This document shows positions 3,283 through 20,728 of a stretch of DNA of 32,000 bases, one piece after another. Location: NCBI RefSeq assembly GCF_014280195.1, contig NZ_CP047960.1, forward strand, positions 240,001-272,000, given 5' to 3'. The notes under the pieces were generated by a model. That model did not search any database. It was not told where the DNA came from and saw only the letters and a program-made list of their open reading frames with translations. This stretch comes from Synechococcus sp. A15-24 (lineage in GTDB: Bacteria > Cyanobacteriota > Cyanobacteriia > PCC-6307 > Cyanobiaceae). Every line of letters starts with the position of its first letter. Positions within the stretch are counted from its first letter, which is position 1. The translations under genes were made by a program, and so were the position numbers.

Positions 3283-4494
3283 ATGGATCTGCCGGCTGTG
3301 CCGTCAGCCCTGCTGGATGCCCTTAAGGCGGCAGCCACTGAAGCCGGTGTGCCGCGACTGGCGCTGGTGGGGGGTGTGGTGAGGGATCTGTTGCTGCATC
3401 AACGCCATGGCCGTCCCTGGACTGGCGTTCCCGATCTGGATTGGGTGGTGGAGGGCAGCGCCGCCCATCTGGCGGACGTCCTGCAAGAGCGTTGCGGGAC
3501 TGAACGGTTGAGCGGTGTTCAGCATCACGGTCAGTTCGGCACGGTGGCCCTGAACCTCGATGGTGTGCCCCTCGATCTGGCCACGGCGCGACATGAGCAC
3601 TATCCGGGGCCAGCACAGAACCCCGTGGTGCAGCCGGGGTCGTTGGCGGCGGATCTGGTGCGGCGTGATCTGACGATCAATGCCATGGCTCTGGACCTGA
3701 TTTCCGGGGAGTTGATCGATCCCCACGGCGGCCAGAGCGATCTGGCCGCAGGCCGCCTGCAGTTTCTGCATCCCGGCAGCATCAGCGATGACCCCACCCG
3801 GGTGATCCGGGCTGCGCGCTACGGCGCCCGGCTGGGGATGGCCCTGGGTGCCGAGGGGCTTGAACAGGTGGGTGCGACCGTCGCGGCGTGGCCCTGGAGC
3901 TGGCAAGTGGGGGATGCGCCGGAGACGGCACCGCCGGCCCTGGCCACCAGGTTGCGGATGGAGCTGGAGCGGCTGCTGGACCATGAACCGTGGCCCATCG
4001 CTTTGGACCTGCTGGAGTCCTGGCATGCAATGGCTCTGGTGGATCCCTGCTTGCAGCGTGATCCCGAACGAACCCGACGTCTGCGTTGGGGGCAACGCCT
4101 CGGGCTGCCACTGATGACGGCGCTGTTGGCGGCTGCGGCTGATCCTTGGGCTGTGGCGCGCCGCCTGCAGATTCCCGGCCAGCAGCAGCAGTGGTTGGAA
4201 CGGCTGCCATCGCTGCAGGGCTGGTTGGCGTCGCATCCACTGCCCGTCCAGGCATCCCCAGATGCCTGGACGACAGCGCTGGAGCGCGGTGGTTGGCCGC
4301 CGCAGACGGTGGCGCTGATGGTGACGCTGCGGCCTGCGGCGTGGAGGCCACTGCTGCGTTGGTGGGGCCGCTGGCGGCATATTCAGTCGCCCCAGAATGC
4401 GCGCCAGTTGATCGCCGAGGGATGGCAACCGGGCCCAGGTCTGGGTGAGGAATTGCGCCGCCGTCGCGGCGTGCTGCTGGATCAGGGGCGATGA
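3283..4494 (+). CDS. tRNA nucleotidyltransferase / poly(A) polymerase family protein (CCA-adding-enzyme-like, no HD domain seen)
   Basis: Head-domain motif LALVGGVVRDLLL...PDLDWVVEG (GGxVRD...DxD) and RDLTINAMA. TGA at 4492-4494 overlaps the next gene's ATG. Confidence 0.7.
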   Translation: MDLPAVPSALLDALKAAATEAGVPRLALVGGVVRDLLLHQRHGRPWTGVPDLDWVVEGSAAHLADVLQERCGTERLSGVQHHGQFGTVALNLDGVPLDLATARHEHYPGPAQNPVVQPGSLAADLVRRDLTINAMALDLISGELIDPHGGQSDLAAGRLQFLHPGSISDDPTRVIRAARYGARLGMALGAEGLEQVGATVAAWPWSWQVGDAPETAPPALATRLRMELERLLDHEPWPIALDLLESWHAMALVDPCLQRDPERTRRLRWGQRLGLPLMTALLAAAADPWAVARRLQIPGQQQQWLERLPSLQGWLASHPLPVQASPDAWTTALERGGWPPQTVALMVTLRPAAWRPLLRWWGRWRHIQSPQNARQLIAEGWQPGPGLGEELRRRRGVLLDQGR

Positions 4495-5918
4495 GACGAA
4501 CGGCTCAGCTCTGGACCCTTATGGCTGCGCTGGTGGCGGCGGCCTTCGCTCTGCGGACCCTGGTGTTGATCGATGCCACCGCCCTGTGGAGCGATGAGCT
4601 CTACAGCGTGGGTAAAAGCTTCCAGCCAAGCCCGCTGGAGCTGTTGGGAATGCTGCGGCAGGACACCCATCCACCCTTTTATTACGGCCTGCTCTGGGTC
4701 TGGGGGCAACTGGTGGGGCAAAGCCCCGTCAGTCTGCGGTTGCTCTCCTGGTTGGCCTATCTGGCAGGGGGTGCCGTGATGGTGGCCCAGGCGCTGGCCC
4801 TCAGTGATGGTCGGCAGCGGGTGCTGCCCCTGGCGCTTCTGCTGGCGTTCTGCAGTCCCTACCCCGTGCGCTTCGCCATCGAGGGGAAAAGCTATGCGCT
4901 GCTGGTGCTGCTGGTGGCGCTGGCCTGGTGGTGGCGTCGTGCCGAACGATCTGTGGCCTATGGAGTGGTGGCGGCGCTGGCGGGCCTCACTCACTTCTAC
5001 GGTCTGTTTCTGGTGCTTTCGGCAGCCGCCTGGGATGGGGCAAGGCGGCGCTGGCGTCTGGCGGGAGCTGCCGTGCTGGGGGCCATCCCAGCTTTGGGAT
5101 GGATCATTTATTCCGCGGATTATCTGTTCAGTTCCCGCTCCGGCAGCTGGATCGGCCCACCGGACTTCGCCCTGCTGGAGGAGTCCCTGGCTCGGGCTCT
5201 GGGGCTCTGGCCCCTTCCCAAGCTGCTGTTGCTGTTGGTGCTCTTCGGGGGGCTGCAGCGTTGGGGCGGGATGCAACCGCTGCCATGGCGACGGAACCGT
5301 TTGCTGGATCGCAGTGCGCTGTTGCCCTCTGCTGTGATGGTGCTGGCTGTGGTGTTGGTCTCCTTTGTTAAGCCGCTGGCCTTCAGTCGCTATTTCGTGG
5401 TGCTGTTGCCGTCGGTGCTGCCGCTGCTGTGTGTGCTGCTGACCGCCTCACCACTCCATCGCTGGGGGCAACGTGTGGTGCTGGGGGTGTTGGTGCTGCT
5501 GCTGATCAGTTGGTGGGGGCTAGGTTTTTCGGAGCTGGATCCCGCAGCCGGCGGGGTGCGTGAACAGGACCAGTTCCGTGCGATCAGCCAGCGCACCAGC
5601 GGACAGAGGGAGCGCTACAGCCCCCGGGCCCGCCTGTTCAACCTCAGTGATCAGATGGAGTTCTCCATGGGACGCATCACTGCTCCACAGCTGCCCTGGG
5701 GCGATCGCGATGAACTGCGGGAACGGCTGTTGCGTTCACCGCTGCCGGATGAGCTTTGGCTGGCCAGCAGCGGGCCTCCGCAGAAGCTGAATCGCAAACT
5801 CAAGCCGCTGCAGCAGCAGGCCGAAGCCGCTGGATATGCCTGTGCCGACCGTTCTGAAGGCCTCAGCCATGGTCGGCTGTTGCGTTGCCGATCGGGATCC
5901 AGGGGCCCTCGGCTGTGA
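4491..5918 (+). CDS. Polytopic membrane glycosyltransferase, GT39/GT83 (ArnT/PMT-like) family
   Basis: Many hydrophobic helices. The first-loop motif WSDELYSVGKS...DTHPPFYYGLLW is typical of ArnT/PMT_2 proteins. There is a soluble tail of about 110 aa. ATG at 4491 lies in an ATGA overlap with the upstream gene. Confidence 0.65.
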   Translation: MRRTAQLWTLMAALVAAAFALRTLVLIDATALWSDELYSVGKSFQPSPLELLGMLRQDTHPPFYYGLLWVWGQLVGQSPVSLRLLSWLAYLAGGAVMVAQALALSDGRQRVLPLALLLAFCSPYPVRFAIEGKSYALLVLLVALAWWWRRAERSVAYGVVAALAGLTHFYGLFLVLSAAAWDGARRRWRLAGAAVLGAIPALGWIIYSADYLFSSRSGSWIGPPDFALLEESLARALGLWPLPKLLLLLVLFGGLQRWGGMQPLPWRRNRLLDRSALLPSAVMVLAVVLVSFVKPLAFSRYFVVLLPSVLPLLCVLLTASPLHRWGQRVVLGVLVLLLISWWGLGFSELDPAAGGVREQDQFRAISQRTSGQRERYSPRARLFNLSDQMEFSMGRITAPQLPWGDRDELRERLLRSPLPDELWLASSGPPQKLNRKLKPLQQQAEAAGYACADRSEGLSHGRLLRCRSGSRGPRL

Positions 5919-7887
5919 GGGTCTGCGCTGTGGTTTCTGGACAGGCCAGCAGCAAGGGACCGCAGGTCTGGGGATCAACCAGCAGCTCAAGCAGTGCCTG
6001 TGAGGGTTCCTCATCCAGTTGGATGGGCCCATCCAGCCACTGCCAGCTGCGGCGGTTGGCCGGCGCCAGGCTGCTGGCGTAGCCCTGAGCCAATCGATCC
6101 ATGGCCTCGGGGTATGCCGGAATGCATTTGGCCCAAAGGGTGACTCGCAGGGGGGAGCTGCTCGCCAGCATTTCCCCCAGATGCCCGAGCAGACCGAAGC
6201 CGGTGACATCGGTGCAGGCGTGAATCGCCTGGCGATGGGGCTCCAGTTGATCCAGCAATCGGTGCTGACTGCGGCACATGTGCTGGAGCACGGTGTCCAA
6301 AGCTTCGGGTTGGCAGGCACCCGCCATCGCAGCAGCGAACAACACGCCGGTGCCCAGGGGGCGACTCAACAGCAGCACATCACCGTGGGCGATTCCCCCC
6401 TTGTTCCAGGGGGAAGCGCTGCGACCGTTGACGCAGAGGCTCAGCTGCACCCCAAGGCTGGGGCTGTGCGGGGGTTCACTGCGGGATTCCAGAGTGTGAC
6501 CTCCGATCAGCTGCGCCTGCTGTTCCTGCAGCACCGATCGCACACCGCACAGCGTCTGCACCAGCAGTTCCTGCTGCTCCGCCGCCTCCAGCACGGGCAG
6601 GGTCACGATCGCTTGCGCGCTGTCGACCCTTGCACCGCTGGCCCAGAGATCGGAGCAGGCATGGAGGGTGGTGAGTCGAGCGTTCAGCCAGGGGTCGCTG
6701 ACCAGTGCTGGGAACCCATCCACGCTCTGCAGCAGCGGCGGATCGCCCTCGATGCGTGCCGCATCCTCCGGCGGCCCGCTGAGCCCGGCCTGGTCCAGGG
6801 CGGCTTCGAGGGGCTGGGCCGGCAGCTTGGCCGCGCACCCCCGACACGCCATCGGTGCTGATGACGTCATTGGTTCGCTGCTGCGGAACCCCGCCATGAA
6901 GCGTCGGTCGATCCGTCGCTTCCACTGCCAGAGCCATCTGGAGGGCCCCAGCTGCCAACGTCCCCGGCGTGCCCAGGCCCGGCCCTGCTGATCGCCGATC
7001 AGCTGCAGTGCTTCGCGCTGCGGCCGCCAGGGGCGCAGCGGGCGATCCAGGCAACTGGCTTCCAGGTTCCGTGCCAGGGGGATGGCGGCTCTCACGGCCC
7101 AGACGCCGGAGGCCGGCCTGGGAGCTGCAGCCATAACGGCGCAGTCACCGCTGGCGAAGACATGCTCGCTGCCTTCCACTTGCATCTGGGCATTGGTGCG
7201 CAGGCGGCCATCGCCATCCACCGGCAGATCGCTGGCTGCCAGCCAGTGGGGGGCGCGACTGCCGGTGCAAAGCAGCCGGGGGCCAGCCAAGGCCTCGGGG
7301 GTCGTGACCAGGTCGATCGATGCCGCCGAAAGGATCCGCCGCTCCAGGGGACCTGGACCGTTTGAACGGGTTTGAAGCTGCAACGGGCGGTGAGGCCAGC
7401 GGCGCCGCAGCGCCAGCACCACCTCCATGGCAGCGGCGCCAGCCCCGACCACCGTGAAGGGGGTTGTGCTGTTGGGATCCTCGGAGGCGATGAAGGCCAG
7501 GGCCGGCTCCAGTGGCTTGATCGCGATGCCTTCAGCGCTTGGCCTGCTGATGGCACCGACATCGAGGCTGAGCAGACCGAAGTGGAGGGGCGGGCGTTCT
7601 GCGAGCAACAGACAGCGCTGGGCGGGGTCCAGGCCGGTGATCTCCGCCTGCACGAAGGCCACACCGGCGCGATCGCAGAGGGAGCGCAGATCGATGGCGG
7701 CTTCCTCCGGTGGGTCGATCCCGGCGATCAGGGCGGGAACCATGCCCGAATACAGCGCTGTACTGCAGCGGTTGATCAGCAGCACAGAACGGGCCGGCCG
7801 TCGGGTTGGATCCATGGCCCAGCGTTTGAGGATCAGCGCGTGGCTGTGGCCTCCGCCGGCCAGCAGCAGTGGCCCGGCAGGACTCAT
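5863..7887 (-). CDS. selD: Fusion protein: FAD/NAD(P) pyridine-nucleotide-disulfide-oxidoreductase-like domain plus selenide,water dikinase (SelD)
   Basis: N-terminus MSPAGPLLLAGGGHSH (Rossmann fold). The middle CRGCAAKL aligns with the SelD GxGC(G/A)xK active-site loop, so this is the Cys type. The C-terminal half has the PurM-like fold motifs (DSAQAIVTLP, HACTDVTGFGLLGHL). Start chosen at ATG 7887 (ATGA overlap with the galE stop) rather than ORF-track ATG 7944. Confidence 0.85.
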   Translation of the reverse strand: MSPAGPLLLAGGGHSHALILKRWAMDPTRRPARSVLLINRCSTALYSGMVPALIAGIDPPEEAAIDLRSLCDRAGVAFVQAEITGLDPAQRCLLLAERPPLHFGLLSLDVGAISRPSAEGIAIKPLEPALAFIASEDPNSTTPFTVVGAGAAAMEVVLALRRRWPHRPLQLQTRSNGPGPLERRILSAASIDLVTTPEALAGPRLLCTGSRAPHWLAASDLPVDGDGRLRTNAQMQVEGSEHVFASGDCAVMAAAPRPASGVWAVRAAIPLARNLEASCLDRPLRPWRPQREALQLIGDQQGRAWARRGRWQLGPSRWLWQWKRRIDRRFMAGFRSSEPMTSSAPMACRGCAAKLPAQPLEAALDQAGLSGPPEDAARIEGDPPLLQSVDGFPALVSDPWLNARLTTLHACSDLWASGARVDSAQAIVTLPVLEAAEQQELLVQTLCGVRSVLQEQQAQLIGGHTLESRSEPPHSPSLGVQLSLCVNGRSASPWNKGGIAHGDVLLLSRPLGTGVLFAAAMAGACQPEALDTVLQHMCRSQHRLLDQLEPHRQAIHACTDVTGFGLLGHLGEMLASSSPLRVTLWAKCIPAYPEAMDRLAQGYASSLAPANRRSWQWLDGPIQLDEEPSQALLELLVDPQTCGPLLLACPETTAQTLTAEGPWIPIGNATADHG

Positions 7888-8918
7888 GGTGCTGACCGAT
7901 AGCCCATTGGATTGGCCTGCTGCCAGGCCCAGCCATCGCGGCACATGTCCACCAGGCCGCGGCGGGCGGTCCAGCCCAAGACGGCTTCCGCCTGGCGGGG
8001 ACAGGCCTGCAGCCTTGGCACATCACCGGGACGGCGGGCGACCACCTCGTAGGGAATGGTGATGCCGGTGGCTTGCTCGAACCCCTTGATCACATCGAGC
8101 ACACTGAGTCCTGTGCCCGTGCCGATGTTCACGGTCAACTGGGTGGGTAACTCCTGGTTGAGCAGGTGGGTGAGCGTGACGCCGTGGGCTTCGGCTAGAT
8201 CCATCACGTGCAGGTAGTCGCGGATGCCGGTGCCGTCGGGTGTTGGGTAGTCCTGCCCGAAGACCCGCAGCTTGTCCCTGCGTCCTGCAGCCACCTGGGT
8301 GATGAAGGGAAAAAGGTTGTTGGGAATGCCGAGGGGGTCCTCCCCGATGCAGCCGCTGGGGTGGGCGCCTACCGGGTTGAAGTAGCGCAGGCAGGCCACC
8401 CGCCAGCTGCTGGAGCGGCAAAGTGCTCCCAGCATCTGCTCCACGGCGAGTTTGGTCTGGGCATAGGGATGCACCGGCGCGGTGGCCATGCCCTCATGCA
8501 AGGGGAATTGCTCCGGTTCGCCGTACACGGTGGAGGTGCTGCTGAACACAAGGGTTCGGCAGCCATTCCGTTCCATGGCTGCCGCCAGGACCCGACTGCC
8601 GTTGAGGTTCACATCCCAGTAGCGCAGCGGGTCGGCCACCGATTCACCCACGGCTTTGAGCCCGGCGAAGTGGATCACGCCATCCACTGGGCCGCCCGAG
8701 CGGAAGGCTCGATCCAGCACCTCAGGGTTGCGCAGATCCCCTTCCACCAGCTGTAGGGCATCGGACGCCGCCAGCTCCTGGACCCGGCGCAGGGCTTCCG
8801 GACTGCTGTTGTCGAAGTTGTCCAACACCACCAGGGAGTGGCCCTGCTCCAGCAGCACCAGGCAGGTGTGGCTGCCGATGAATCCAGCCCCTCCGGTGAT
8901 CAGGATTCTGCACGTCAT
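7884..8918 (-). CDS. galE: UDP-glucose 4-epimerase
   Basis: ILITGGAGFIGSHTCLVLLEQGHSLVVLDNFDNSS, SSTSTVYG, YAQTKLAVE (YxxxK); full-length GalE-like SDR. Confidence 0.9.
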   Translation of the reverse strand: MTCRILITGGAGFIGSHTCLVLLEQGHSLVVLDNFDNSSPEALRRVQELAASDALQLVEGDLRNPEVLDRAFRSGGPVDGVIHFAGLKAVGESVADPLRYWDVNLNGSRVLAAAMERNGCRTLVFSSTSTVYGEPEQFPLHEGMATAPVHPYAQTKLAVEQMLGALCRSSSWRVACLRYFNPVGAHPSGCIGEDPLGIPNNLFPFITQVAAGRRDKLRVFGQDYPTPDGTGIRDYLHVMDLAEAHGVTLTHLLNQELPTQLTVNIGTGTGLSVLDVIKGFEQATGITIPYEVVARRPGDVPRLQACPRQAEAVLGWTARRGLVDMCRDGWAWQQANPMGYRSAP

Positions 8919-9007
8919 GGGCGTGGGCAGCGCGTGACTCGATTGTGGATCAGGTCAGAGCCAGACCAGGTGTTTGCACCTAGGGTTCGACAACTAGTGA
9001 TCAACGT

Positions 9008-9763
9008 GTGGACGGCGGAACGACGCTTCCTGAGCTGAGGCGGGCTATAAGTCCTGACGGCCGTTCTCTTTTAAGGAAATACAACCTGCTGAAGCCTCTT
9101 GTGGAACAAATGATCACCAGCGAAGCCATCGCTGGTGTGCCTGTTCCAGCTGATGCTCTGAAAAAAGCGAAGCTTGAGCTTCTCGATCAACGGGGCTTCG
9201 AGACCATGGAGCAGTGGTCAGAGATGCTCGCTGATCTGGATCGATCCGATGACGAGGTGATTGATCGGCTCGAACGGGTGATCCGTCGCCAGGAGTACAT
9301 CAGGGAGCGTTTTGCACCCAAAGCGGAAGCTCGGTTTCTGGAGCGCAAGAACGAGCTGGATCAAGTGGTCTACAGCCTGCTGCGGCTGGCCAACAATTTT
9401 CTGGCCCGAGAGTTGTACCTACAGATCGAGTCTGGGGAATCCAACTTCGCTGATCTGGCCAAGCGCTATGCCGAGGGGCCTGAGCGCAACACCAACGGCA
9501 TCGTCGGGCCGGTCTCTCTGACGCAGGCCCATCCAGCGCTCGTCGAAAAGCTGCGGGTGGCCCAACCCGGTGTCCTGCTGGAGCCATTCCGCATCGCCGA
9601 TTGGTGGCTGGTGGTTCGGCTGGAGCGCTACTCCCCGGCCACGTTCACGCCAGAGGTCTCGGATCGAATGTGCCGGGAAATGTTCGATGCCTGGATTGCG
9701 GAGGAAACCGCCACTACCTTGAGCCGGCTTGAAGGCGAGTTCAGCGACTTCAGCATCTCCTGA
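9008..9763 (+). CDS. Parvulin/PpiC-like protein with an apparently degenerate active site, no signal peptide
   Basis: The C-terminal half FADLAKRYAEGPERNTNGIVGPVSLTQAHPALVEKLRVAQPGVLLEPFRIADWWLVVRLE follows the PpiC rotamase template. The N-terminal LLRKYNLLKPLVEQMITSEAI resembles a SurA-N-like helix. GTG 9008 is the first start after an in-frame TAG at 8981. The stop overlaps the ABC gene start (TGATG at 9761-9765). Confidence 0.6.
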   Translation: MDGGTTLPELRRAISPDGRSLLRKYNLLKPLVEQMITSEAIAGVPVPADALKKAKLELLDQRGFETMEQWSEMLADLDRSDDEVIDRLERVIRRQEYIRERFAPKAEARFLERKNELDQVVYSLLRLANNFLARELYLQIESGESNFADLAKRYAEGPERNTNGIVGPVSLTQAHPALVEKLRVAQPGVLLEPFRIADWWLVVRLERYSPATFTPEVSDRMCREMFDAWIAEETATTLSRLEGEFSDFSIS

Positions 9764-12681
9764 TGACCCAGTCCCCTCCCTTTCCTCTTCTCAACCATCC
9801 CGCCTTCAAGGGCGTGTCCGATGCCGCTCTGACGCAGTTGCAGGACTCCACCAAGCTGCTGCGCTTCGAGCTGGGTCAGCAGCTGTGCGAGCCGGATGAC
9901 ATCCCGGCCAGGATTCTCGTGTTGCTGAAGGGTCAGGCCCGTCTGGTGGGTCGTCACAACGGTCGTCTCACCACCGTTGGCAAGTTCGGCCCAGGCAGCG
10001 TGATCGGTGCCGCCAGCCTGCTCTGTGGCAATCCCTGCGAGAACGTGATCACCTCGGATGAGGTGATCGCCTGCGCGATCTCCGATGAGCAGTTGACCCA
10101 GCTGTACGGCCAGGAGGAAGCGTTCCGCCTCTGGTGTGATCAGCAGCTCTGGCCTCAGGAACTGCTCGCATTGCTGGAGGTTCTTGAGGAGGGAACGGCG
10201 GAGACCGACAGTTCCGCCCTTGAACAGCTGGAGCAAGCGTTGAAGACGGCCAAGCGCTGCCGCCCTGAACCCGAGGCGATTGATGCAGCATTGGCGACGG
10301 GCGGCCGTCTGTACCTCACCAGTTGCTGGGGAAACGCCACGGTGGGCCAGCCCCTCCAGGCGGCATCAGCGTTGCCCGTGGCGGATCGGTTCTCTCAACG
10401 CCTGGTGCTGTTCCCCAACGCATCGGACGTCAGCGATGGGCCGGAGCCCGGCGGTGATCTGGTGCCCGTGAATGCTGTGGAGGATGCGGAACTGCTGCCT
10501 CCGGTCAGTCGCTACAGCCCTGAGCGCAATGTGGTGGACAGCCTGAGGCTGATTCGCGCTGAAGGCCCGATACAGGAAACGCTGGCCTGCTTCCAGATGC
10601 TGGCCCAGTTGATGAAGCTGCCGTTCCGGCGCGACTCGATCGAGAAGGTCCTGCAGGACAACCTGCGCCGTGGTCTCACTCCCAATCTTCAGTTGTGCGG
10701 CCAGTTGGCGGCAAGTCTCGGACTGCACGTGATGGCGGCCAAGGTGCCGGCTGTGACGGGCACGCGTCTGCAGGTGCCATCGATGATTCCCTGGCAGGGC
10801 GGGTTCGCCCTGGTGGTGGCCAGCAATGAGCAGGGTCTGAAGCTTGCCTCGCCGAAACAAGGCATGGTCACGCTGGGTCCCGCTGACCTGGCGGACTGTT
10901 TCCCTGAGGGCATCGAGCTGCTTCTGATGGAGCGCTCTAATGCCACACCGGATCAGAAGTTCGGTCCGGGCTGGTTCTGGCCGGCGCTGAAGCGCTATCG
11001 GGGCGTGCTGATCCAGGTGCTGGCGGCCAGTTTTGTGGTGCAGCTGTTCACCCTGGCCAATCCCCTGCTGATCCAGGTGATCATCGACAAGGTGATCAGC
11101 CAACGCAGCCTGGACACCTTGCAGGTGCTGGGCATTGCCCTGGTGGTGGTGACCATTTTGGAAGGGGTGCTGGGCAGCCTCAAGACATTCCTCTTTGCCG
11201 AAACCACCAACCGGATCGATCAGCGCCTCGGCGCCGAGGTGATCGACCACCTGCTGCGGCTTCCCCTGGGCTACTTCGACCGCCGCCCGGTGGGTGAACT
11301 CGGCACCCGGGTGGCTGAGCTCGAGAAGATCCGCAACTTCCTCACGGGTCAGGCTCTCACCACGATTCTGGATGCCGCCTTCTCGGTGATTTACATCCTG
11401 GTGATGGTGATCTACAGCTGGTTGCTTACATTGATCGCCCTGTCTGTGTTGCCGATTCAGATCGGCCTCACGGTGCTGGGGGCTCCGCTGTTCCGCCGCC
11501 AGTTCCGTGCTGCTGCGGAAGAAAACGCCAAGACCCAGAGCCATCTGGTGGAAGTGCTCACCGGGATCCAGACGGTCAAGGCTCAGAACGTGGAGATGGT
11601 CAGCCGTTGGCGTTGGCAGGAGTTTTATTCCCAGTACATCGCTCGCACGTTTGAGAAGACGATCACCGGCACCGCTCTGAATCAGACCAGCCAGGTGCTG
11701 CAGAAGATTTCGCAGCTCATGGTGCTCTGGATCGGCGCCTCAATGGTGTTAAGCGGTGACCTGACCCTTGGCCAGTTGATCGCTTTCCGGATCATCTCCG
11801 GCTATGTGACCCAGCCACTGCTGCGGTTGTCGACGATCTGGCAGAGCATCCAGGAACTGCGGGTCAGCTTCGAGCGTCTTGCCGACGTGATTGACACCCC
11901 CGAGGAATCCGATGAGGTGGATAAATCCAAGGTGATGCTGCCGCCGTTAATGGGGGAGGTGCGGTTCGAGGATCTCTCCTTCCGTTTCCGCCCCGGACAA
12001 CCGGAGGTGTTGAAGGACATCAATCTGGAGATCAAGGCTGGCACCTTCGTTGGCATCGTTGGCCAGAGCGGCAGCGGCAAGAGCACCCTGATGAAGCTGC
12101 TGCCTCGGCTCTATGAGCCGGGTGACGGGCGGATCCTGATCGACGGTTACGACATCGCCAAGGTGGAGCTCTATTCACTGCGCCGACAGATCGGCATTGT
12201 TCCTCAGGATCCGTTGTTGTTCAGCGGCACCGTCAGCGAGAACATCGCGTTGACGAATCCGGAAGCGTCCAGTGAGGAGATCGTGCGTGCGGCCCGCCTG
12301 GCCAATGCCCACGACTTCATCATGGAGCTGCCCAGTGGTTACAGCACACCGGTGGGTGAACGGGGGGCGTCCCTCAGTGGTGGCCAACGGCAGCGGGTGG
12401 CAATTGCTCGGACCCTGCTGAGCAATCCCAAGTTGCTGGTGATGGACGAAGCCACCAGCGCCCTTGACTATGAAACCGAGCGCAAGGTCTGCGACAACCT
12501 GCTCGAGAACCTGGATGACCAGACGGTGTTTTTCATTACCCACCGCCTGTCCACCATCCGTCAGGCCGACGTGATTGTGATGCTGCACCAGGGGGCCGTG
12601 GTCGAGGTCGGCACCCATGAGGAGCTGATGAAGCATCGGGGTCGCTACTACGCCCTTTACCGCCAGCAGGAGAGCACCTGA
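9763..12681 (+). CDS. HlyB-type ABC exporter (type I secretion permease/ATPase) with an N-terminal cNMP-binding-like domain and a C39 peptidase-like domain
   Basis: 972 aa. Six-helix TMD (aa ~400-690). Walker A GQSGSGKST (nt 12061-12087), signature LSGGQRQRVAIARTLL, Walker B LLVMDEATSALD, H-loop FITHRLS. N-terminal domains are listed separately. Confidence 0.9.
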   Translation: MTQSPPFPLLNHPAFKGVSDAALTQLQDSTKLLRFELGQQLCEPDDIPARILVLLKGQARLVGRHNGRLTTVGKFGPGSVIGAASLLCGNPCENVITSDEVIACAISDEQLTQLYGQEEAFRLWCDQQLWPQELLALLEVLEEGTAETDSSALEQLEQALKTAKRCRPEPEAIDAALATGGRLYLTSCWGNATVGQPLQAASALPVADRFSQRLVLFPNASDVSDGPEPGGDLVPVNAVEDAELLPPVSRYSPERNVVDSLRLIRAEGPIQETLACFQMLAQLMKLPFRRDSIEKVLQDNLRRGLTPNLQLCGQLAASLGLHVMAAKVPAVTGTRLQVPSMIPWQGGFALVVASNEQGLKLASPKQGMVTLGPADLADCFPEGIELLLMERSNATPDQKFGPGWFWPALKRYRGVLIQVLAASFVVQLFTLANPLLIQVIIDKVISQRSLDTLQVLGIALVVVTILEGVLGSLKTFLFAETTNRIDQRLGAEVIDHLLRLPLGYFDRRPVGELGTRVAELEKIRNFLTGQALTTILDAAFSVIYILVMVIYSWLLTLIALSVLPIQIGLTVLGAPLFRRQFRAAAEENAKTQSHLVEVLTGIQTVKAQNVEMVSRWRWQEFYSQYIARTFEKTITGTALNQTSQVLQKISQLMVLWIGASMVLSGDLTLGQLIAFRIISGYVTQPLLRLSTIWQSIQELRVSFERLADVIDTPEESDEVDKSKVMLPPLMGEVRFEDLSFRFRPGQPEVLKDINLEIKAGTFVGIVGQSGSGKSTLMKLLPRLYEPGDGRILIDGYDIAKVELYSLRRQIGIVPQDPLLFSGTVSENIALTNPEASSEEIVRAARLANAHDFIMELPSGYSTPVGERGASLSGGQRQRVAIARTLLSNPKLLVMDEATSALDYETERKVCDNLLENLDDQTVFFITHRLSTIRQADVIVMLHQGAVVEVGTHEELMKHRGRYYALYRQQEST
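9784..10116 (+). other. cNMP-binding-like (CAP/Crp effector-type) domain of the exporter; phosphate-binding cassette looks degenerate
   Basis: LLRFELGQQLCEPDDIPARILVLLKGQARLV....GKFGPGSVIGAASLLCGNPCENVITSDEVIACAI follows the beta-roll pattern. The canonical FGE...PR(S/T)A positions read FGPGS...PCEN. Confidence 0.55.
10534..10938 (+). other. C39 peptidase-like domain (CLD) of the exporter, apparently non-catalytic
   Basis: ETLACFQMLAQLMKLPF aligns with the (D)CGxAxLxMIL helix. The strand expected to carry the catalytic His reads WQGGFALVVAS. There is no His between aa 323 and 400. Confidence 0.55.
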
Positions 12682-12683
12682 CC

Positions 12684-13874
12684 ATGAAGCTCAATCCGTT
12701 CAAGCGCGATACCCCAGCGCCCAACCAGGAGTCCACAGCCCTCGTCACCTACGACGAATCGGTGCTGCAGCAGGGACGTTTCTGGATGAAGACGGTCACC
12801 TGGACCTTGATCGGCACCACGGTGTTCGGTGTGGCCTGGCTGGCCCTGGCCCGAACAGAAGAGATCGTTGTGGCCCCCGGCCAGCTGGAGCCGGTGGGGT
12901 CCGTGCAGGACATTCAGATGCCCGTGGGTGGTGTGGCGGATCAGATCCTGGTGCAGGAAGGGGACTCCGTGAAGGTTGGTCAGGTGCTGATGAAGTTGGA
13001 CACCGAAGCCACGGAAGAACAGCGTCTCAGTCTTGAAACAACCATCAAGCTCAAGCATGAGCAGCTCCGTCTGAAGGACCAGGAGAAGCAGCGCTATCTC
13101 CAGGTGAACAACGAGGAGGTGCAGATGCTGGAGAACAACCTCGAGCTTCAGTCCGAGATCCTTGAGCGATTCGAAGAGTTAGAGGAAGCTGGAGCGACCT
13201 CTGAGCTCCAATATCTCAGCCAACAGAACGCTGTCGAGGAGACCCGCGGTCGTCTGCTGCAGACCAAGGCGGACCGTCTGCGGCAGGTGGCGCTGCTTGA
13301 GCAACAGGTGGCGCAGCTCAATTCGGAACTGGCCGACCTGACGGGCCGTTTGGCCGAAGCACGGGTCACCCTCCGCTATCAGCAGCTGAAGTCTCCGGTG
13401 GATGGCGTGGTGTTTGATCTGAAGCCAACGGCCACGGGCTTCACTGCACAGTCCACCCAGACGGTGATGAAGGTTGTCCCTTACGGATCTTTGGAAGCGA
13501 AGGTGGAGGTGCCGAGTAACAAGATCGGTTTCGTCACGATTCCACCTGGATGCCCCAAGGATCTTGAGAGCTGCATGAAAGCTGACATCAGCATTGATTC
13601 CTACCCATCCACAGATTTCGGGGTATTGGAAGGGAAGGTGACCCGCATCGGTTCCGATGCTCTGCCGCCGGATCCCCAGGAGCAACGTCAAGAACTGAGC
13701 TTTCCCGTCACGGTCAAGCTTGATCAGCAGACGTTGGCGCTGAAAAGCGGTACCTCACTGCCGTTGCAGGTGGGCATGAGCCTGACGGCCAACATCAAGC
13801 TGCGCAAGGTGTCCTACCTGCAACTGTTGTTGGGTGAATTCCAAGACAAGGCTGAATCGCTGCAGCGCCTCTGA
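12684..13874 (+). CDS. HlyD-family membrane fusion / periplasmic adaptor protein of a type I secretion system
   Basis: Single N-terminal TM (VTWTLIGTTVFGVAWLALA). Lipoyl-like hairpin (PVGGVADQILVQEGDSVKVGQVLMKLD). Long coiled coil (nt ~13020-13370). C-terminal beta-barrel with LKSPVDGVVFDL. ATG lies 2 nt after the ABC stop. Confidence 0.85.
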   Translation: MKLNPFKRDTPAPNQESTALVTYDESVLQQGRFWMKTVTWTLIGTTVFGVAWLALARTEEIVVAPGQLEPVGSVQDIQMPVGGVADQILVQEGDSVKVGQVLMKLDTEATEEQRLSLETTIKLKHEQLRLKDQEKQRYLQVNNEEVQMLENNLELQSEILERFEELEEAGATSELQYLSQQNAVEETRGRLLQTKADRLRQVALLEQQVAQLNSELADLTGRLAEARVTLRYQQLKSPVDGVVFDLKPTATGFTAQSTQTVMKVVPYGSLEAKVEVPSNKIGFVTIPPGCPKDLESCMKADISIDSYPSTDFGVLEGKVTRIGSDALPPDPQEQRQELSFPVTVKLDQQTLALKSGTSLPLQVGMSLTANIKLRKVSYLQLLLGEFQDKAESLQRL

Positions 13875-13879
13875 GCCGG

Positions 13880-15130
13880 ATGCGGATCCTTTTCGTTCAC
13901 CAGAACTTTCCCGGTCAGTACGTGCACATCGTGCAGCGTCTGGCCCAACAGGGGCAGCACCAGCTCGTGGCCTTGGGCATCAATCCTCTGGATCGAGGGC
14001 GTGGCATGCCCGAGAGCCTCAACCATTTCCGTTACCGCCTCGATCGAGGCAACACCGAGGGAGTTCATCCCCTTGTGATGGAGACGGAAACCAAGGTCAT
14101 TCGAGCGGAGGGCTGTGCCCGAGCAGCTGAGCAGCTCAAGGCAAAGGGCTTCACGCCAGATTTGATCTGTGCCCATCCCGGGTGGGGTGAACCACTGTTT
14201 CTGAAGGCGATCTGGCCTGATACGCCCCTGCTTTGCTACCAAGAATTTTTCTACAACGAGTTCGGCTTCGACTCCAACTTCGATCCGGAATTCCAGGACA
14301 ACCGCGGTTGGCAAGAGCAGGCGAAGCTCACGATGAAAAACGCCTATCTGCATCTCACCCTCGAGCAGGCGGATTGGAACATCTCTCCCACGCACTTTCA
14401 GGCCAGCAGCTTTCCCGAGCACTGGCGGCGTCGGATAAGCGTGATCCATGACGGTGTGGACACAAGTAAGGCCGTTCCTAATTCAGCCCCGGGGCCGCTC
14501 AAGCTTCCCGATGGCACTCTTCTTGAAAAGGGACAACTGATCGTCACCTTTGTGAATCGCTGTCTGGAGCCCTATCGGGGCTGTCATACGTTCATTCGAG
14601 CTATTCCTGAGCTGCAACAGAGCAACCCTGAGGCCCGTTTGGTGATCGTGGGACAAACCAAGGGGGTGAGTTACGGAGCTGCGTGTTCCGACGGTGAATG
14701 GAAGGATCGGTTTCTGGCAGAGATCGAGGGTCAGTACGACCCAAGCCGTGTGCACTTCACGGGCACGCTGCCTTATGGCCAATTTGTGCCACTCCTGCAG
14801 CTCAGTGCTTGCCACGTCTATCTCACCTATCCATTTGTGATGAGCTGGAGCCTGCTGGAGGCTATGGCCTGTGGTTGTGCTGTCGTAGGGTCCAACACCG
14901 CACCGGTGCGTGAAGCTATTCGCCATGGCCAGAACGGCCTCTTGGTGGATTTTTTTGCTCCTGCGGATCTTGCTGCTGCTGTTACCGAGTTGCTGCAGGA
15001 CCGAGAGCTGGCAGTGGCTTTCGGTCAGGCTGCACGACGCACGGTCGAGGCCACCTATGAGCTGGACTCTTGTGTGACCCGACAACTGGCATTAATGGAT
15101 CTGGTGGCCAGCGGCAGCATTAGCGACTGA
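13880..15130 (+). CDS. GT4 (group 1) glycosyltransferase
   Basis: [14 protein letters not shown] start. C-terminal GT-B motif with E-x7-E ([26 protein letters not shown]). ATG lies 5 nt after the HlyD stop. Confidence 0.8.
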
Positions 15131-15171
15131 GTTCACCGGGCAGACTGTTTCGTTGTTTTCGCATCCGGCAC

Positions 15172-16473
15172 GTGACTCAGCTCCAAAGTCTTAGGGGCAT
15201 GGTCGATCTCCTCCCGGAGGCTGTGCAGCGCTGGCAGGCCGTTGAAGCTGTTGCACGGGAGCATTTTCGCCGCTCTGGTTTCGGCGAGATCCGCACGCCT
15301 CTCCTGGAAACAACCGACCTGTTCTGTCGCGGAATCGGTGAGGCCACCGATGTTGTCGGCAAAGAAATGTACAGCTTCACAGATCGCGGTGAGCGCGCCT
15401 GCACACTGCGGCCGGAGGGCACCGCGTCGGTGGTGCGGGCGGCGCTGCAACACGGCCTGTTGAGCCAAGGTGCGCAGAAGCTTTGGTATGCCGGCCCGAT
15501 GTTCCGATACGAGCGGCCCCAGGCCGGTCGACAGCGTCAGTTCCACCAGATTGGGGTGGAGTGGCTTGGCGCGGAAAGTGCCCGCTGTGACGTTGAGGTG
15601 ATTGCTCTCGCCTGGGATCTGCTTGCCCGTCTCGGAGTGGGGGGCCTTGAGCTGGAAATCAACAGCCTCGGTTCTCCCGAGGATCGCCAGGTTTATCGAG
15701 CAGCACTGGTGAATTGGCTGGAGCAGCGGTCTGAGGCTCTGGATTCCGATTCCCAGGCCCGTCTCAGCACCAATCCCCTGAGGATTCTTGATTCGAAGAA
15801 CAAGGACACCCAGGCATTACTCGAGCATGCACCAACCCTGGCCAATGCCCTCAGCCCGGAGAGCAGGCAGCGCTTTGATGCGGTTCAGCGTGGGTTGACC
15901 GCCCTGGGCATTCCCTTCCGGCTCAATCCGAGGCTGGTGCGGGGTCTGGATTACTACGGCCACACCACCTTCGAGATAACCAGTGATCAGTTGGGGGCGC
16001 AGGCCACGGTCTGTGGTGGCGGCCGGTACGACGGTTTGATTGCCGAACTCGGTGGAGCCTCGACACCGGCAATCGGCTGGGCCCTTGGCATGGAACGCCT
16101 GCTTCTGGTGCTGGAAGCTTCGGCTCAGGTTGATCCCGAAGGCACCGCGGCCCGCTTGGTGGCCGGCTCTGCACCGGATGCCTTCATCGTCAACCGTGGT
16201 GTGCAGGCCTCTGTCGCCGCTTTGGCTCTGGCCCGTGATCTGCGAGGCCATGGCTTGTCGGTTGACCTCGATGACTCGGGCTCAGCCTTCGGGAAGCAGT
16301 TCAAACGCGCCGATCGCCGTGGAGCACGCTGGGCCTTGGTGATTGGCGATGACGAGGTGGAGCGTGGTGAGCTGCGTTTAAAGCCGCTTCAGCAGTCGGG
16401 GGAAGAGGGTTGTGTCCGGCTCGATGACCGGGAGACCATTGTGGCGATTCTCAAGTCCCTCCAAGGGAACTGA
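15172..16473 (+). CDS. hisS: Histidine--tRNA ligase
   Basis: [66 protein letters not shown]: class II HisRS motifs. GTG start at 15172. Confidence 0.93.
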
Positions 16474-20194: not shown

Positions 20195-20314
20195 TCAGTT
20201 GAAGAAGTAGCTGGACATCAACACGCCGGTGACAAACACAAACAGCAGGCCCAGGTAAAGGCTGGTGCGGTTGAGTTCAACCGGAAGATTGTTCGGATTG
20301 GGGTTGCGTTGCAT
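20195..20314 (-). CDS. psbL: Photosystem II protein PsbL
   Basis: Manual translation gives [39 protein letters not shown] (39 aa). In the ORF track it appears only as the tail of the spurious 174-aa ORF 20195..20719. Confidence 0.92.
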
Positions 20315-20322
20315 GGTGCTGA

Positions 20323-20460
20323 TCAGCGACGGATGAATTGCATCGCGGCGAGGGCGCCGAGGAAAAACACAGTCGGAACACCGAGTGTGTGAAGGGCCAG
20401 CCAACGCACCGTGAAGATCGGATAGTTGCGTGGGGTGGTGGCGACGGGGGTTTGTGACAT
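20323..20460 (-). CDS. psbF: Cytochrome b559 beta subunit PsbF
   Basis: Manual translation from ATG 20460 gives [45 protein letters not shown] (45 aa), with TGA at 20323-20325. It is below the ORF-track size cutoff. Confidence 0.92.
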
Positions 20461-20463
20461 GGG

Positions 20464-20712
20464 TTATTTCAGGCGGACGTCGAGTTCGGATTTGCCCTCG
20501 TAGCGCTGGCTCACCACAGGAGCCTTGCTCTCGGAGGCCTGGAAGTAAGCATCCGGACGAGGCGTGCCGAAAGCGTCGTAGGCCAGGCCGGTGGACACGA
20601 ACAGGAACCCGGCAAGGAAGATCGATGGAAGAGTCACGAAGTGAATCACCCAGTAGCGGATGCTCGTGATGATTTCGAAGAACGGGCGTTCCCCTGTAGA
20701 GCCTGCAGCCAT
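20464..20712 (-). CDS. psbE: Cytochrome b559 alpha subunit PsbE
   Basis: [51 protein letters not shown]: canonical PsbE with the heme-ligand His. Confidence 0.95.
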
Positions 20713-20728
20713 AGCTCATGCATATCAG

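Follow-up and report, generated by a model that had tools for sequence, protein, structure and literature searches.

What does an operon export that joins a parvulin-like protein to an ATP-binding cassette (ABC) exporter, an HlyD-type adaptor and a family 4 glycosyltransferase (GT4)? The question is raised by a locus at 9008-15130 of a 32,000-nt stretch of the Synechococcus sp. A15-24 genome (contig NZ_CP047960.1, positions 240,001 to 272,000; hereafter the window), where the exporter carries a domain of the cyclic nucleotide monophosphate (cNMP)-binding fold and a domain resembling the C39 peptidases. With a probability that we put at roughly 0.8, the first three genes encode the inner-membrane core of a cyanobacterial type I secretion system (T1SS) of the repeats-in-toxin (RTX) type.

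Operon layout and type of exporter

Four plus-strand open reading frames (ORFs) span 9008-15130 exactly as a preliminary description of this DNA had it, and an ORF listing together with direct reading bore out the four coupled genes, their coordinates and junctions, and the spacers on either side. The genes, and the domains of the exporter, are as follows:

9008-9763, plus strand: parvulin-like gene, 251 amino acids (aa)
9763-12681, plus strand: ABC exporter gene, 972 aa
9862-10110, plus strand: cNMP-binding-fold domain of the exporter, residues 34-116, with a non-canonical phosphate-binding cassette
10582-10962, plus strand: C39-like domain of the exporter, residues ~274-400, catalytic dyad absent
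11017-12459, plus strand: transmembrane domain (TMD) and ATP-binding cassette of the exporter, residues 419-686 and 750-899
12684-13874, plus strand: HlyD gene, 396 aa
13880-15130, plus strand: GT4 gene, 416 aa

The TGA stop of the parvulin-like gene and the ATG start of the exporter gene have one base in common (TGATG, 9761-9765), a 2-nt gap ('cc', 12682-12683) separates the exporter gene from that of HlyD, and a 5-nt gap ('gccgg', 13875-13879) lies between HlyD and GT4. A consensus terminator scan of the junctions found no terminator-like site above shuffled expectation. Spacing identical to that of the window was seen in the contigs that encode the exact WH8102 ABC protein (L081 and L082; WH8102-type below), while the junctions of two other loci, L084 and L085, are overlaps of 1-4 nt, the L085 genes overlapping by 4 nt. 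Relatives at 35-94% identity show the same tight spacing, which is therefore not a matter of chance; to judge from it, the four genes are probably co-transcribed.

The ABC protein is of the 'long type', with a cNMP-like domain, a linker, a degenerate C39-like domain, the TMD and a nucleotide-binding domain (NBD). Pfam matched ABC_membrane at 185 bits and ABC_tran at 119 bits, and the hydrophobic segments fall within residues 413-577. Although 189 NCBIfam families match the protein, TIGR01846 (type_I_sec_HlyB) alone exceeds its curated cutoff, by a narrow margin (733.1 bits vs 725.55), in a match that covers model positions 2-693 and starts at protein residue 274. The bacteriocin and NHLP models stayed below theirs (TIGR01193, 411.7 vs 523.85; TIGR03796, 451.9 vs 853.3), and among solved structures the best relative was Escherichia coli HlyB, at 557 bits, with PCAT1 at 357 bits. 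The adaptor matches Pfam HlyD_3 (55.7 bits vs a cutoff of 22.2), has a single N-terminal transmembrane (TM) segment at residues 38-56, and is encoded directly after the ABC gene in every locus with downstream sequence; its best NCBIfam match is TIGR01843 (type_I_hlyD). With an HlyB-type ABC protein above cutoff and an HlyD protein beside it, the earlier assignment of this pair to the inner-membrane core of a T1SS was upheld. Pfam and NCBIfam likewise agreed with the domains first given (Rotamase; cNMP_binding and ABC; HlyD; GT4), the term 'C39-like' being apt for a match that is sub-threshold. It had also been stated that the 32 kb encode neither a cargo nor an outer-membrane channel, and indeed Pfam scans of the other long ORFs examined and a six-frame motif scan found no OEP/TolC or HemolysinCabind gene in the window.

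The N-terminal part of the exporter marks a restricted family. An exhaustive representative search with residues 1-410 matched 743 cluster representatives of 1.84 billion, among them the cluster of Synechocystis BAA18265.1 ('HlyB family', 1011 aa), which we take to be Sll1180. The non-cyanobacterial loci that came from a genome scan (L013-L080) encode plain ABC exporters of ~600 aa with the N-terminal domain absent, and were unusable as a comparison set for the C39 region.

RTX proteins as candidate cargo

At several related loci, a gene for an RTX protein stands next to the exporter genes:

L007 (freshwater Synechococcaceae), directly after HlyD on the same strand: 756-aa protein with HemolysinCabind repeats and a serralysin C-terminal domain
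L009 (Synechococcus sp. J7-Johnson), between HlyD and the GT4 orthologue: 433-aa HemolysinCabind protein with eight motifs
L081, 15487-17736, and L082, 8400-10649 (WH8102-type), after GT4: 749-aa PhoD-type protein with HemolysinCabind repeats

The motif GGxGxD occurs at residues 602, 611, 620 and 629 of the 756-aa protein and at 664, 673 and 682 of the PhoD protein, which starts directly with the mature PhoD domain and has no Tat or Sec leader. All of these proteins are acidic, contain 0-1 Cys, have no Sec-type N-terminus and carry their GGxGxD nonapeptides in tandem; acidity, low Cys content and the lack of a Sec N-terminus are usual traits of T1SS substrates, as described for S-layer RTX proteins (PMC3034196). 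From gene position, they are candidates for export by the neighbouring system.

Synechocystis offers a homologous exporter with an assigned substrate. Sll1180 is 49% identical to the window ABC protein over 977 residues and has the same cNMP, C39-like, TMD and NBD architecture; the gene of an HlyD protein follows directly downstream, and cargo and TolC are unlinked there too. The two loci differ in that Sll1181 has 583 aa, against 396 aa for the window HlyD, and in that neither a parvulin-like gene nor a GT4 gene lies beside sll1180. According to the part of PMC11594277 that cites Agarwal 2018, Sll1180, Sll1181 and the TolC homologue Slr1270 export the S-layer protein Sll1951, an RTX protein of 1741 residues (PMC3034196). 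The earlier statement that no cargo had been experimentally assigned to such an arrangement thus needs to be withdrawn, as far as that account of Sll1180 goes.

These data also bear on whether the ABC protein could instead be a small-molecule or lipid efflux pump of the multidrug, lipid A or glucan type. The UniProt name of the WH8102 orthologue is 'Multidrug efflux ABC transporter', the MsbA, glucan and multidrug models gave strong yet sub-cutoff matches, and among solved structures ABCB1 scored nearly as high as HlyB. The HlyB T1SS model is nevertheless the one that passes its curated cutoff, and the C39-like domain, the HlyD partner, the RTX genes in relatives and the function of Sll1180 all point to protein export; we regard an efflux pump as very improbable.

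The E. coli HlyB/HlyD/TolC system resembles the window genes in having a non-catalytic C39-like domain before the TMD and an HlyD adaptor, and differs in that it lacks both a cNMP-fold domain and a parvulin-like partner of its own. In the haemolysin system, too, TolC is unlinked and the RTX cargo has a C-terminal signal; the hly operon encodes the cargo, hlyA, together with an acyltransferase, hlyC.

The C39-like domain and the case for peptide maturation

The second possibility that had to be weighed is that the locus matures and exports bacteriocins or signalling peptides in the manner of a peptidase-containing ABC transporter (PCAT), with the C39 domain cleaving double-glycine (GG) leaders from small precursor peptides whose genes lie elsewhere, the parvulin-like protein acting as a modification enzyme and the ABC/HlyD pair exporting the product. 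The NCBI name of the A15-24 entry to which the ABC protein is 100% identical, 'peptidase domain-containing ABC transporter', would favour this, as would a weak match of the parvulin-like protein to TIGR04500 ('putative peptide maturation system protein').

The domain itself argues otherwise. Peptidase_C39 is below the Pfam cutoff (16.4 bits vs 22), in a match that begins at profile position 15. A single-sequence search with the C39-like region alone gave no match among solved structures, and the whole-protein alignment to such structures began at residue 378, so that a family profile was needed for this region; it was built from 35 sequences of diverse family members and aligned to the solved structures. 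In this alignment, the catalytic Cys21 of PCAT1 ('TDCGAAC') pairs with a Glu in the exporter's 'PIQETLAC', and His99 ('laHFVV') lies in an insertion that is missing from the exporter family. Inspection of the alignment found a Cys or His at the catalytic columns in 0 of ~40 reliably aligned diverse members; Sll1180 has 'DAGVAC' at the site of the catalytic Cys, and so is without it too. The sequence thus identifies the C39-like domain as degenerate in the way of RTX exporters and, because both the catalytic Cys and His are lost, as unable to process GG leaders. The absence of these two residues likewise led us to classify the protein as an RTX-type rather than a bacteriocin-processing exporter. 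By analogy with E. coli HlyB, the domain probably docks unfolded cargo.

The arrangement of the first three genes has been catalogued before, although under a peptide-related name. The 'group I' cluster of Wang, Fewer and Sivonen (2011) consists of a SurA/rotamase gene, a long-type ABC gene (CAP_ED, C39 and ABC) and an HlyD gene; it is the commonest cyanobacterial cluster type, with 57 clusters counted, three of them in WH8102, and only one of 58 cyanobacterial genomes without any (PMC3140520). All three genes are present and contiguous in the window. The locus is therefore an already-described cyanobacterial T1SS operon of a near-universal arrangement. It departs from the published type in two respects: group I was described as a cluster for bacteriocins whose C39 peptidase is active, whereas the window exporter is without the dyad, and GT4 is outside the definition. 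Candidate precursors, moreover, average only 0.35 per group I cluster (PMC3140520), which speaks against peptide maturation; the missing cargo and TolC gene, which had been taken as an oddity of this locus, are on this count normal for group I, as they are for T1SS.

A paralogue, HetC of Nostoc PCC 7120, is an active peptidase exporter and shares the long-type layout of N-terminal cNMP-fold domain, C39-type domain, TMD and NBD. Unlike the window protein, it keeps Cys347 and His420, is proteolytically active and has no adjacent HlyD (PMC10986499). The match to group I, the peptidase activity of HetC and the fit of the family profile to the PCAT1 peptidase domain (E 5e-6) also speak for the PCAT explanation. 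Set against them are the replaced Cys and deleted His segment, in the window and the aligned family members alike; the HlyB model, which was passed where the bacteriocin and NHLP models fell far short; a GG-leader motif that has no match in any of the six frames of the 32-kb window; the RTX proteins, not small peptides, that adjoin the operon in relatives; and the export of a 1741-residue RTX protein that the cited part of PMC11594277 ascribes to Sll1180. We consider peptide maturation improbable. For this clade, the widespread names 'peptidase domain-containing ABC transporter' and 'bacteriocin cluster' mislead, since the exporter has lost the peptidase dyad and the cargo genes next to the operon in relatives code for RTX proteins.

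The WH8102 locus and motility

A tie to WH8102 loci had been suspected, and it was borne out by synteny. WH8102 CAE06708.1 (Q7U9R0), which shares a 90% cluster with an RS9915 protein, is 94% identical to the window ABC protein over all 972 residues with no gaps; the parvulin-like, HlyD and GT4 proteins of the WH8102-type contigs are 88%, 92% and 80.5% identical to those of the window. These contigs carry a divergent galE followed by the Rotamase, ABC, HlyD and GT4 genes, and downstream hisS, uxs, ugd and an epimerase gene. Gene order and the lengths of ABC (972 aa), HlyD (396 aa) and GT4 (416 aa) are the same as in the window; the difference is the PhoD-type phosphatase gene between GT4 and hisS. 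In the window, 'GGGCAGACTG' follows the GT4 stop, and in L081 'GGGCAGACTG' follows the PhoD stop, so the phosphatase gene is cleanly absent here. The pattern suggests that an RTX phosphatase dependent on the T1SS was acquired or lost at the operon's 3′ end. By position, this gene is SYNW0196, which is listed as a putative alkaline phosphatase (PMC3865332) and anchors the numbering; we accordingly number the WH8102 genes SYNW0192-0195 and regard the window genes, on sequence and synteny, as their orthologues.

Whether this orthology makes the operon a motility device is a separate matter. McCarren and Brahamsha (2005/2009) are said to have obtained 17 motility insertions in 9 ORFs and three clusters, including multicomponent transporters and glycosyltransferases, and transposon insertions reportedly fell at about SYNW0192-0195. 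Later motility work reportedly connected insertions with the production of SwmA and with its loss or mislocalisation. This S-layer protein is glycosylated and of the RTX type (PMC3034196), and within clade III only A15-24 and A15-28 are without swmA and swmB (Doré et al. 2020; PMC7522525). Despite this reported loss, A15-24 has an intact operon, at 80-94% identity to the WH8102-type locus, and non-motile clades and freshwater relatives have the operon too. From its retention in all three settings, we concluded that the system exports RTX proteins in general and is not specific to motility.

A conserved trio and a variable fourth gene

The preliminary description had presented the locus as a four-gene module, and of this the trio stood while the fourth member did not. 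The parvulin-like, ABC and HlyD genes are contiguous, with tight or overlapping junctions, in marine Synechococcus (72-94% identity), in Cyanobium and freshwater picocyanobacteria (44-65%) and at L085 (36-44%); L012 has all three, with a gap of ~400 nt between the parvulin-like and ABC genes. Most loci with upstream sequence have a parvulin-like gene before the ABC gene (9 at >50% coverage, plus the WH8102-type L081/L082 and L085). The neighbourhood comparison thus recovered a tight trio in relatives, whereas adjacency of GT4 to HlyD was limited to marine Synechococcus (L001, L002, L004, L011 and L081/L082). At L009, the GT4 orthologue is 2.6 kb from HlyD, and the downstream sequence that could be examined at L007 and L010 showed none. 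At L085, a tetratricopeptide-repeat (TPR)-sulfotransferase gene takes the fourth place, followed by one for a weak RTX protein, and at L084 this place is occupied by a gene for a DUF4214 protein with weak metalloprotease-family matches. The 'four-gene module' is therefore best described as a conserved three-gene core with a lineage-specific fourth gene.

GT4 matches Glyco_trans_4_3 (PF12000, 185.9 bits) and Glycos_transf_1 (PF00534, 98.7 bits) and has no TM segment, as expected of a soluble, cytoplasmic protein; no NCBIfam equivalog reached its cutoff, the best matches being exopolysaccharide (EPS) and PEP-CTERM glycosyltransferases, all far below theirs. It may thus be a bystander that makes lipopolysaccharide, EPS or another glycan independently of the exporter, an explanation that we put only a little short of even. 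The nature of those best matches agrees with it, and so do the persistence of the trio in freshwater and distant relatives where GT4 is displaced or missing from the available downstream sequence, the sulfotransferase, RTX or DUF4214 genes in its place elsewhere, a surrounding region rich in sugar-nucleotide genes (kdsC/kdsD-like, galE, uxs, ugd, epimerase), and its retention in a strain without the glycoprotein SwmA (PMC7522525).

The pattern of identities also suggests separate histories. The trio is nearest to the WH8102-type (88%, 93.5% and 92%) and further from PH41509 (72%, 85% and 79%), whereas GT4, hisS and uxs are 91%, 91% and 97% identical to those of PH41509, and GT4 and hisS 80.5% and 84% to the WH8102-type. 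This suggests that the unit is a mosaic, with a putative recombination tract that starts near the HlyD/GT4 junction (~13875) and runs in the window through 17479.

On the other side, the 5-nt gap, the lack of a terminator and the same spacing in WH8102-type contigs speak for co-transcription in marine Synechococcus, and at L009 the GT4 orthologue is still near the operon, just past the RTX gene. SwmA, Sll1951 and oscillin, RTX surface proteins known from cyanobacteria, are all glycosylated (PMC3034196), and three glycosyltransferases are needed for WH8102 swimming according to the part of PMC4293000 that cites McCarren and Brahamsha 2009; one of these may be GT4. Our reading is that GT4 is probably a lineage-specific accessory gene co-transcribed with the trio, and the choice between its glycosylating the cargo and its building an envelope glycan that the cargo binds is close to even.

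The sulfotransferase genes may have a wider bearing. L085 encodes two TPR-sulfotransferase proteins after the trio (9454-11235 and 13291-15504), and a minus-strand ORF of the window at 859-1704, 7 kb upstream of the operon, has a weak Sulfotransfer_1 match (E 1.4e-4, just under the cutoff). Operons of this kind may repeatedly have a modification enzyme encoded close by.

The parvulin-like protein

The first protein of the operon matches Pfam Rotamase at 31.7 bits (cutoff 21.7), over profile positions 21-96 only, and resembles SurA, PrsA and NifM, with weak matches to TIGR04500 and NifM. In weak alignments to SurA and PrsA (E 0.3-1), both canonical His residues are replaced, one by Tyr or Leu ('VVYSLL') and the other by Leu ('DWWLVV'), and these replacements are conserved across the family; the protein is thus probably not an active prolyl isomerase. 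A scan for TM or other hydrophobic segments and a signal peptide found none (maximum KD19 0.82). Because no hydrophobic segment is present, we place the protein in the cytoplasm, unlike SurA, PrsA and PpiD. A role as chaperone or holdase of the cargo is a reasonable proposal. We know of no classical T1SS that has a chaperone of its own.

In two homology searches with this protein, all of the 120 matches listed were from marine Synechococcus. Most gene calls are of 251 aa, and the WH8102-type contigs are called with a shorter start, at 217 aa. The N-terminal 34 aa in question ('...LLRKYNLLKPLVEQ', window 9008-9109; L081 9246-9347) are conserved down to 34% identity (L012). This conservation and the prevalence of 251-aa calls support the GTG start at 9008, and the 217-aa start is probably a mis-annotation. 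Separately, we noted that His175-Pro176 ('QAHP', window 9530-9538) is invariant in 9/9 aligned homologues, the absence of the canonical His notwithstanding.

The cNMP-fold domain

Pfam matched cNMP_binding at 35.9 bits against a cutoff of 27.5. Compared with the protein kinase A (PKA) RI-alpha subunit, the exporter's 'FGEIALLMNRPRAAT' aligns with 'IGAASLLCGNPCENV', and the phosphate-binding cassette has Ala in place of the ribose-contacting Glu and Cys in place of the phosphate-binding Arg. The domain had been presented as a ligand-sensing cNMP domain, a description that does not stand as worded, both because the cassette is without the canonical Glu and Arg and in view of HetC. The HetC domain, which is needed in vivo, binds GDP, GTP and ppGpp (Kd about 59 µM) but none of cAMP, cCMP, 2-oxoglutarate and c-di-GMP (PMC10986499). 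It is the sole homologous cNMP-fold domain so far studied, and its binding of ppGpp is the one lead. By analogy, the exporter domain probably senses a ligand other than cAMP or cGMP, for which guanine nucleotides or (p)ppGpp have the strongest precedent.

At the position of the Arg that binds the cyclic phosphate (10021-10050, residues ~87-96), the sequence reads 'PCE' (Cys-Glu), a feature common to most family members. The best solved match for the domain, the Euglena PKA regulatory subunit 6rsx, likewise has 'PC' there.

Proposed mechanism and its weighing

Taken as an RTX-type T1SS core, the genes would work as follows. A dimer of the HlyB-type ABC protein and the single-pass HlyD adaptor would recruit a TolC-like channel encoded elsewhere, and an unfolded, Ca-binding RTX-type cargo with an uncleaved C-terminal signal would pass from the cytoplasm to the cell surface in a single threading step. 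The degenerate C39-like domain probably docks the unfolded cargo as in HlyB. Of two additions specific to cyanobacteria, both on the cytoplasmic side, the cNMP-fold domain probably senses a ligand other than cAMP or cGMP, and the signal-less parvulin-fold protein most likely keeps the cargo secretion-competent rather than isomerising its prolines. In A15-24, the operon would serve an RTX cargo other than SwmA or SwmB, encoded outside the window.

Several points weigh against this reading or parts of it. The C39-like family profile fits the PCAT1 peptidase (E 5e-6) better than the C39-like domain of HlyB (E 0.03), and the docking of cargo by this domain is an analogy. At 140.7 bits, the HlyD protein is below the TIGR01843 cutoff of 208.65. 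The loss of both His residues is by itself no proof that the parvulin-like protein has lost isomerase activity, its role as a holdase is a proposal, and its AlphaFold2 model, computed from a 30-sequence alignment of 71-98% identity, was poor, with a mean predicted local distance difference test (pLDDT) score of 52 and values <50 across the parvulin domain. The Synechocystis precedent is an ABC-HlyD pair only, with no parvulin-like gene. As for the unit as a whole, GT4 is not co-conserved with the trio and shows a differing identity pattern, co-transcription of the four genes is deduced from spacing alone, and the SYNW0192-0195 numbers were derived from position.

We further considered a regulated variant of the T1SS, in which an isomerase-dead parvulin would hold RTX cargo and the pseudo-cNMP domain would act as a gate for export that responds to guanine nucleotides, (p)ppGpp or the redox state; this is tentative, and on balance we think it rather unlikely. 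If true, it would tie the secretion of RTX surface or nutrient-scavenging proteins, such as the PhoD-RTX phosphatase, to nutrient status, and A15-24 would keep the system for such cargo after losing its motility proteins. In any case, the strain is a clean background for finding other substrates, with RTX phosphatases as the obvious candidates, and the roles of the parvulin-like partner, the cNMP-fold domain and the variable fourth gene are a question for all cyanobacterial T1SS.

Surroundings of the operon

The window neighbours of the operon are housekeeping and envelope-sugar genes. Its immediate flanks are as follows:

7884-8918, minus strand: galE, divergent, 89 nt upstream of the operon
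8919-9007: divergent spacer between galE and the parvulin-like gene, 89 nt, presumed to hold the operon promoter
15131-15171: spacer between GT4 and hisS, 41 nt, where WH8102-type genomes have the extra gene for a PhoD-type RTX phosphatase
from 15172: hisS, 41 nt downstream of GT4

The length of the 89-nt spacer hinges on the GTG start at 9008. A scan of 8919-9007 with the sigma-70 consensus found no plus-strand promoter-like site, a result of little weight for a cyanobacterium. The idea that the operon is a horizontally acquired island was rejected: its GC content (0.57-0.64) resembles that of the flanks, and synteny is conserved across clades.

Three further ORFs of the window deserve mention. 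The 475-aa ORF at 4491-5918 (plus strand) has no Pfam match, and nor does its counterpart of the same length and position in the WH8102-type contigs. The 693-aa ORF at 5863-7944 (minus strand) combines a pyridine-nucleotide-disulphide oxidoreductase segment with AIRS and AIRS_C (SelD-like) domains; when called from the first possible start, the frame runs 61 nt into the 3′ end of galE, and the WH8102-type call of 674 aa, with a 4-nt overlap, indicates that the true start in the window is probably further downstream. Finally, the 174-aa ORF at 20195-20719 (minus strand) is mostly spurious, in that its last 37 residues alone match PsbL and the frame is over-extended into the psbEFLJ cluster.

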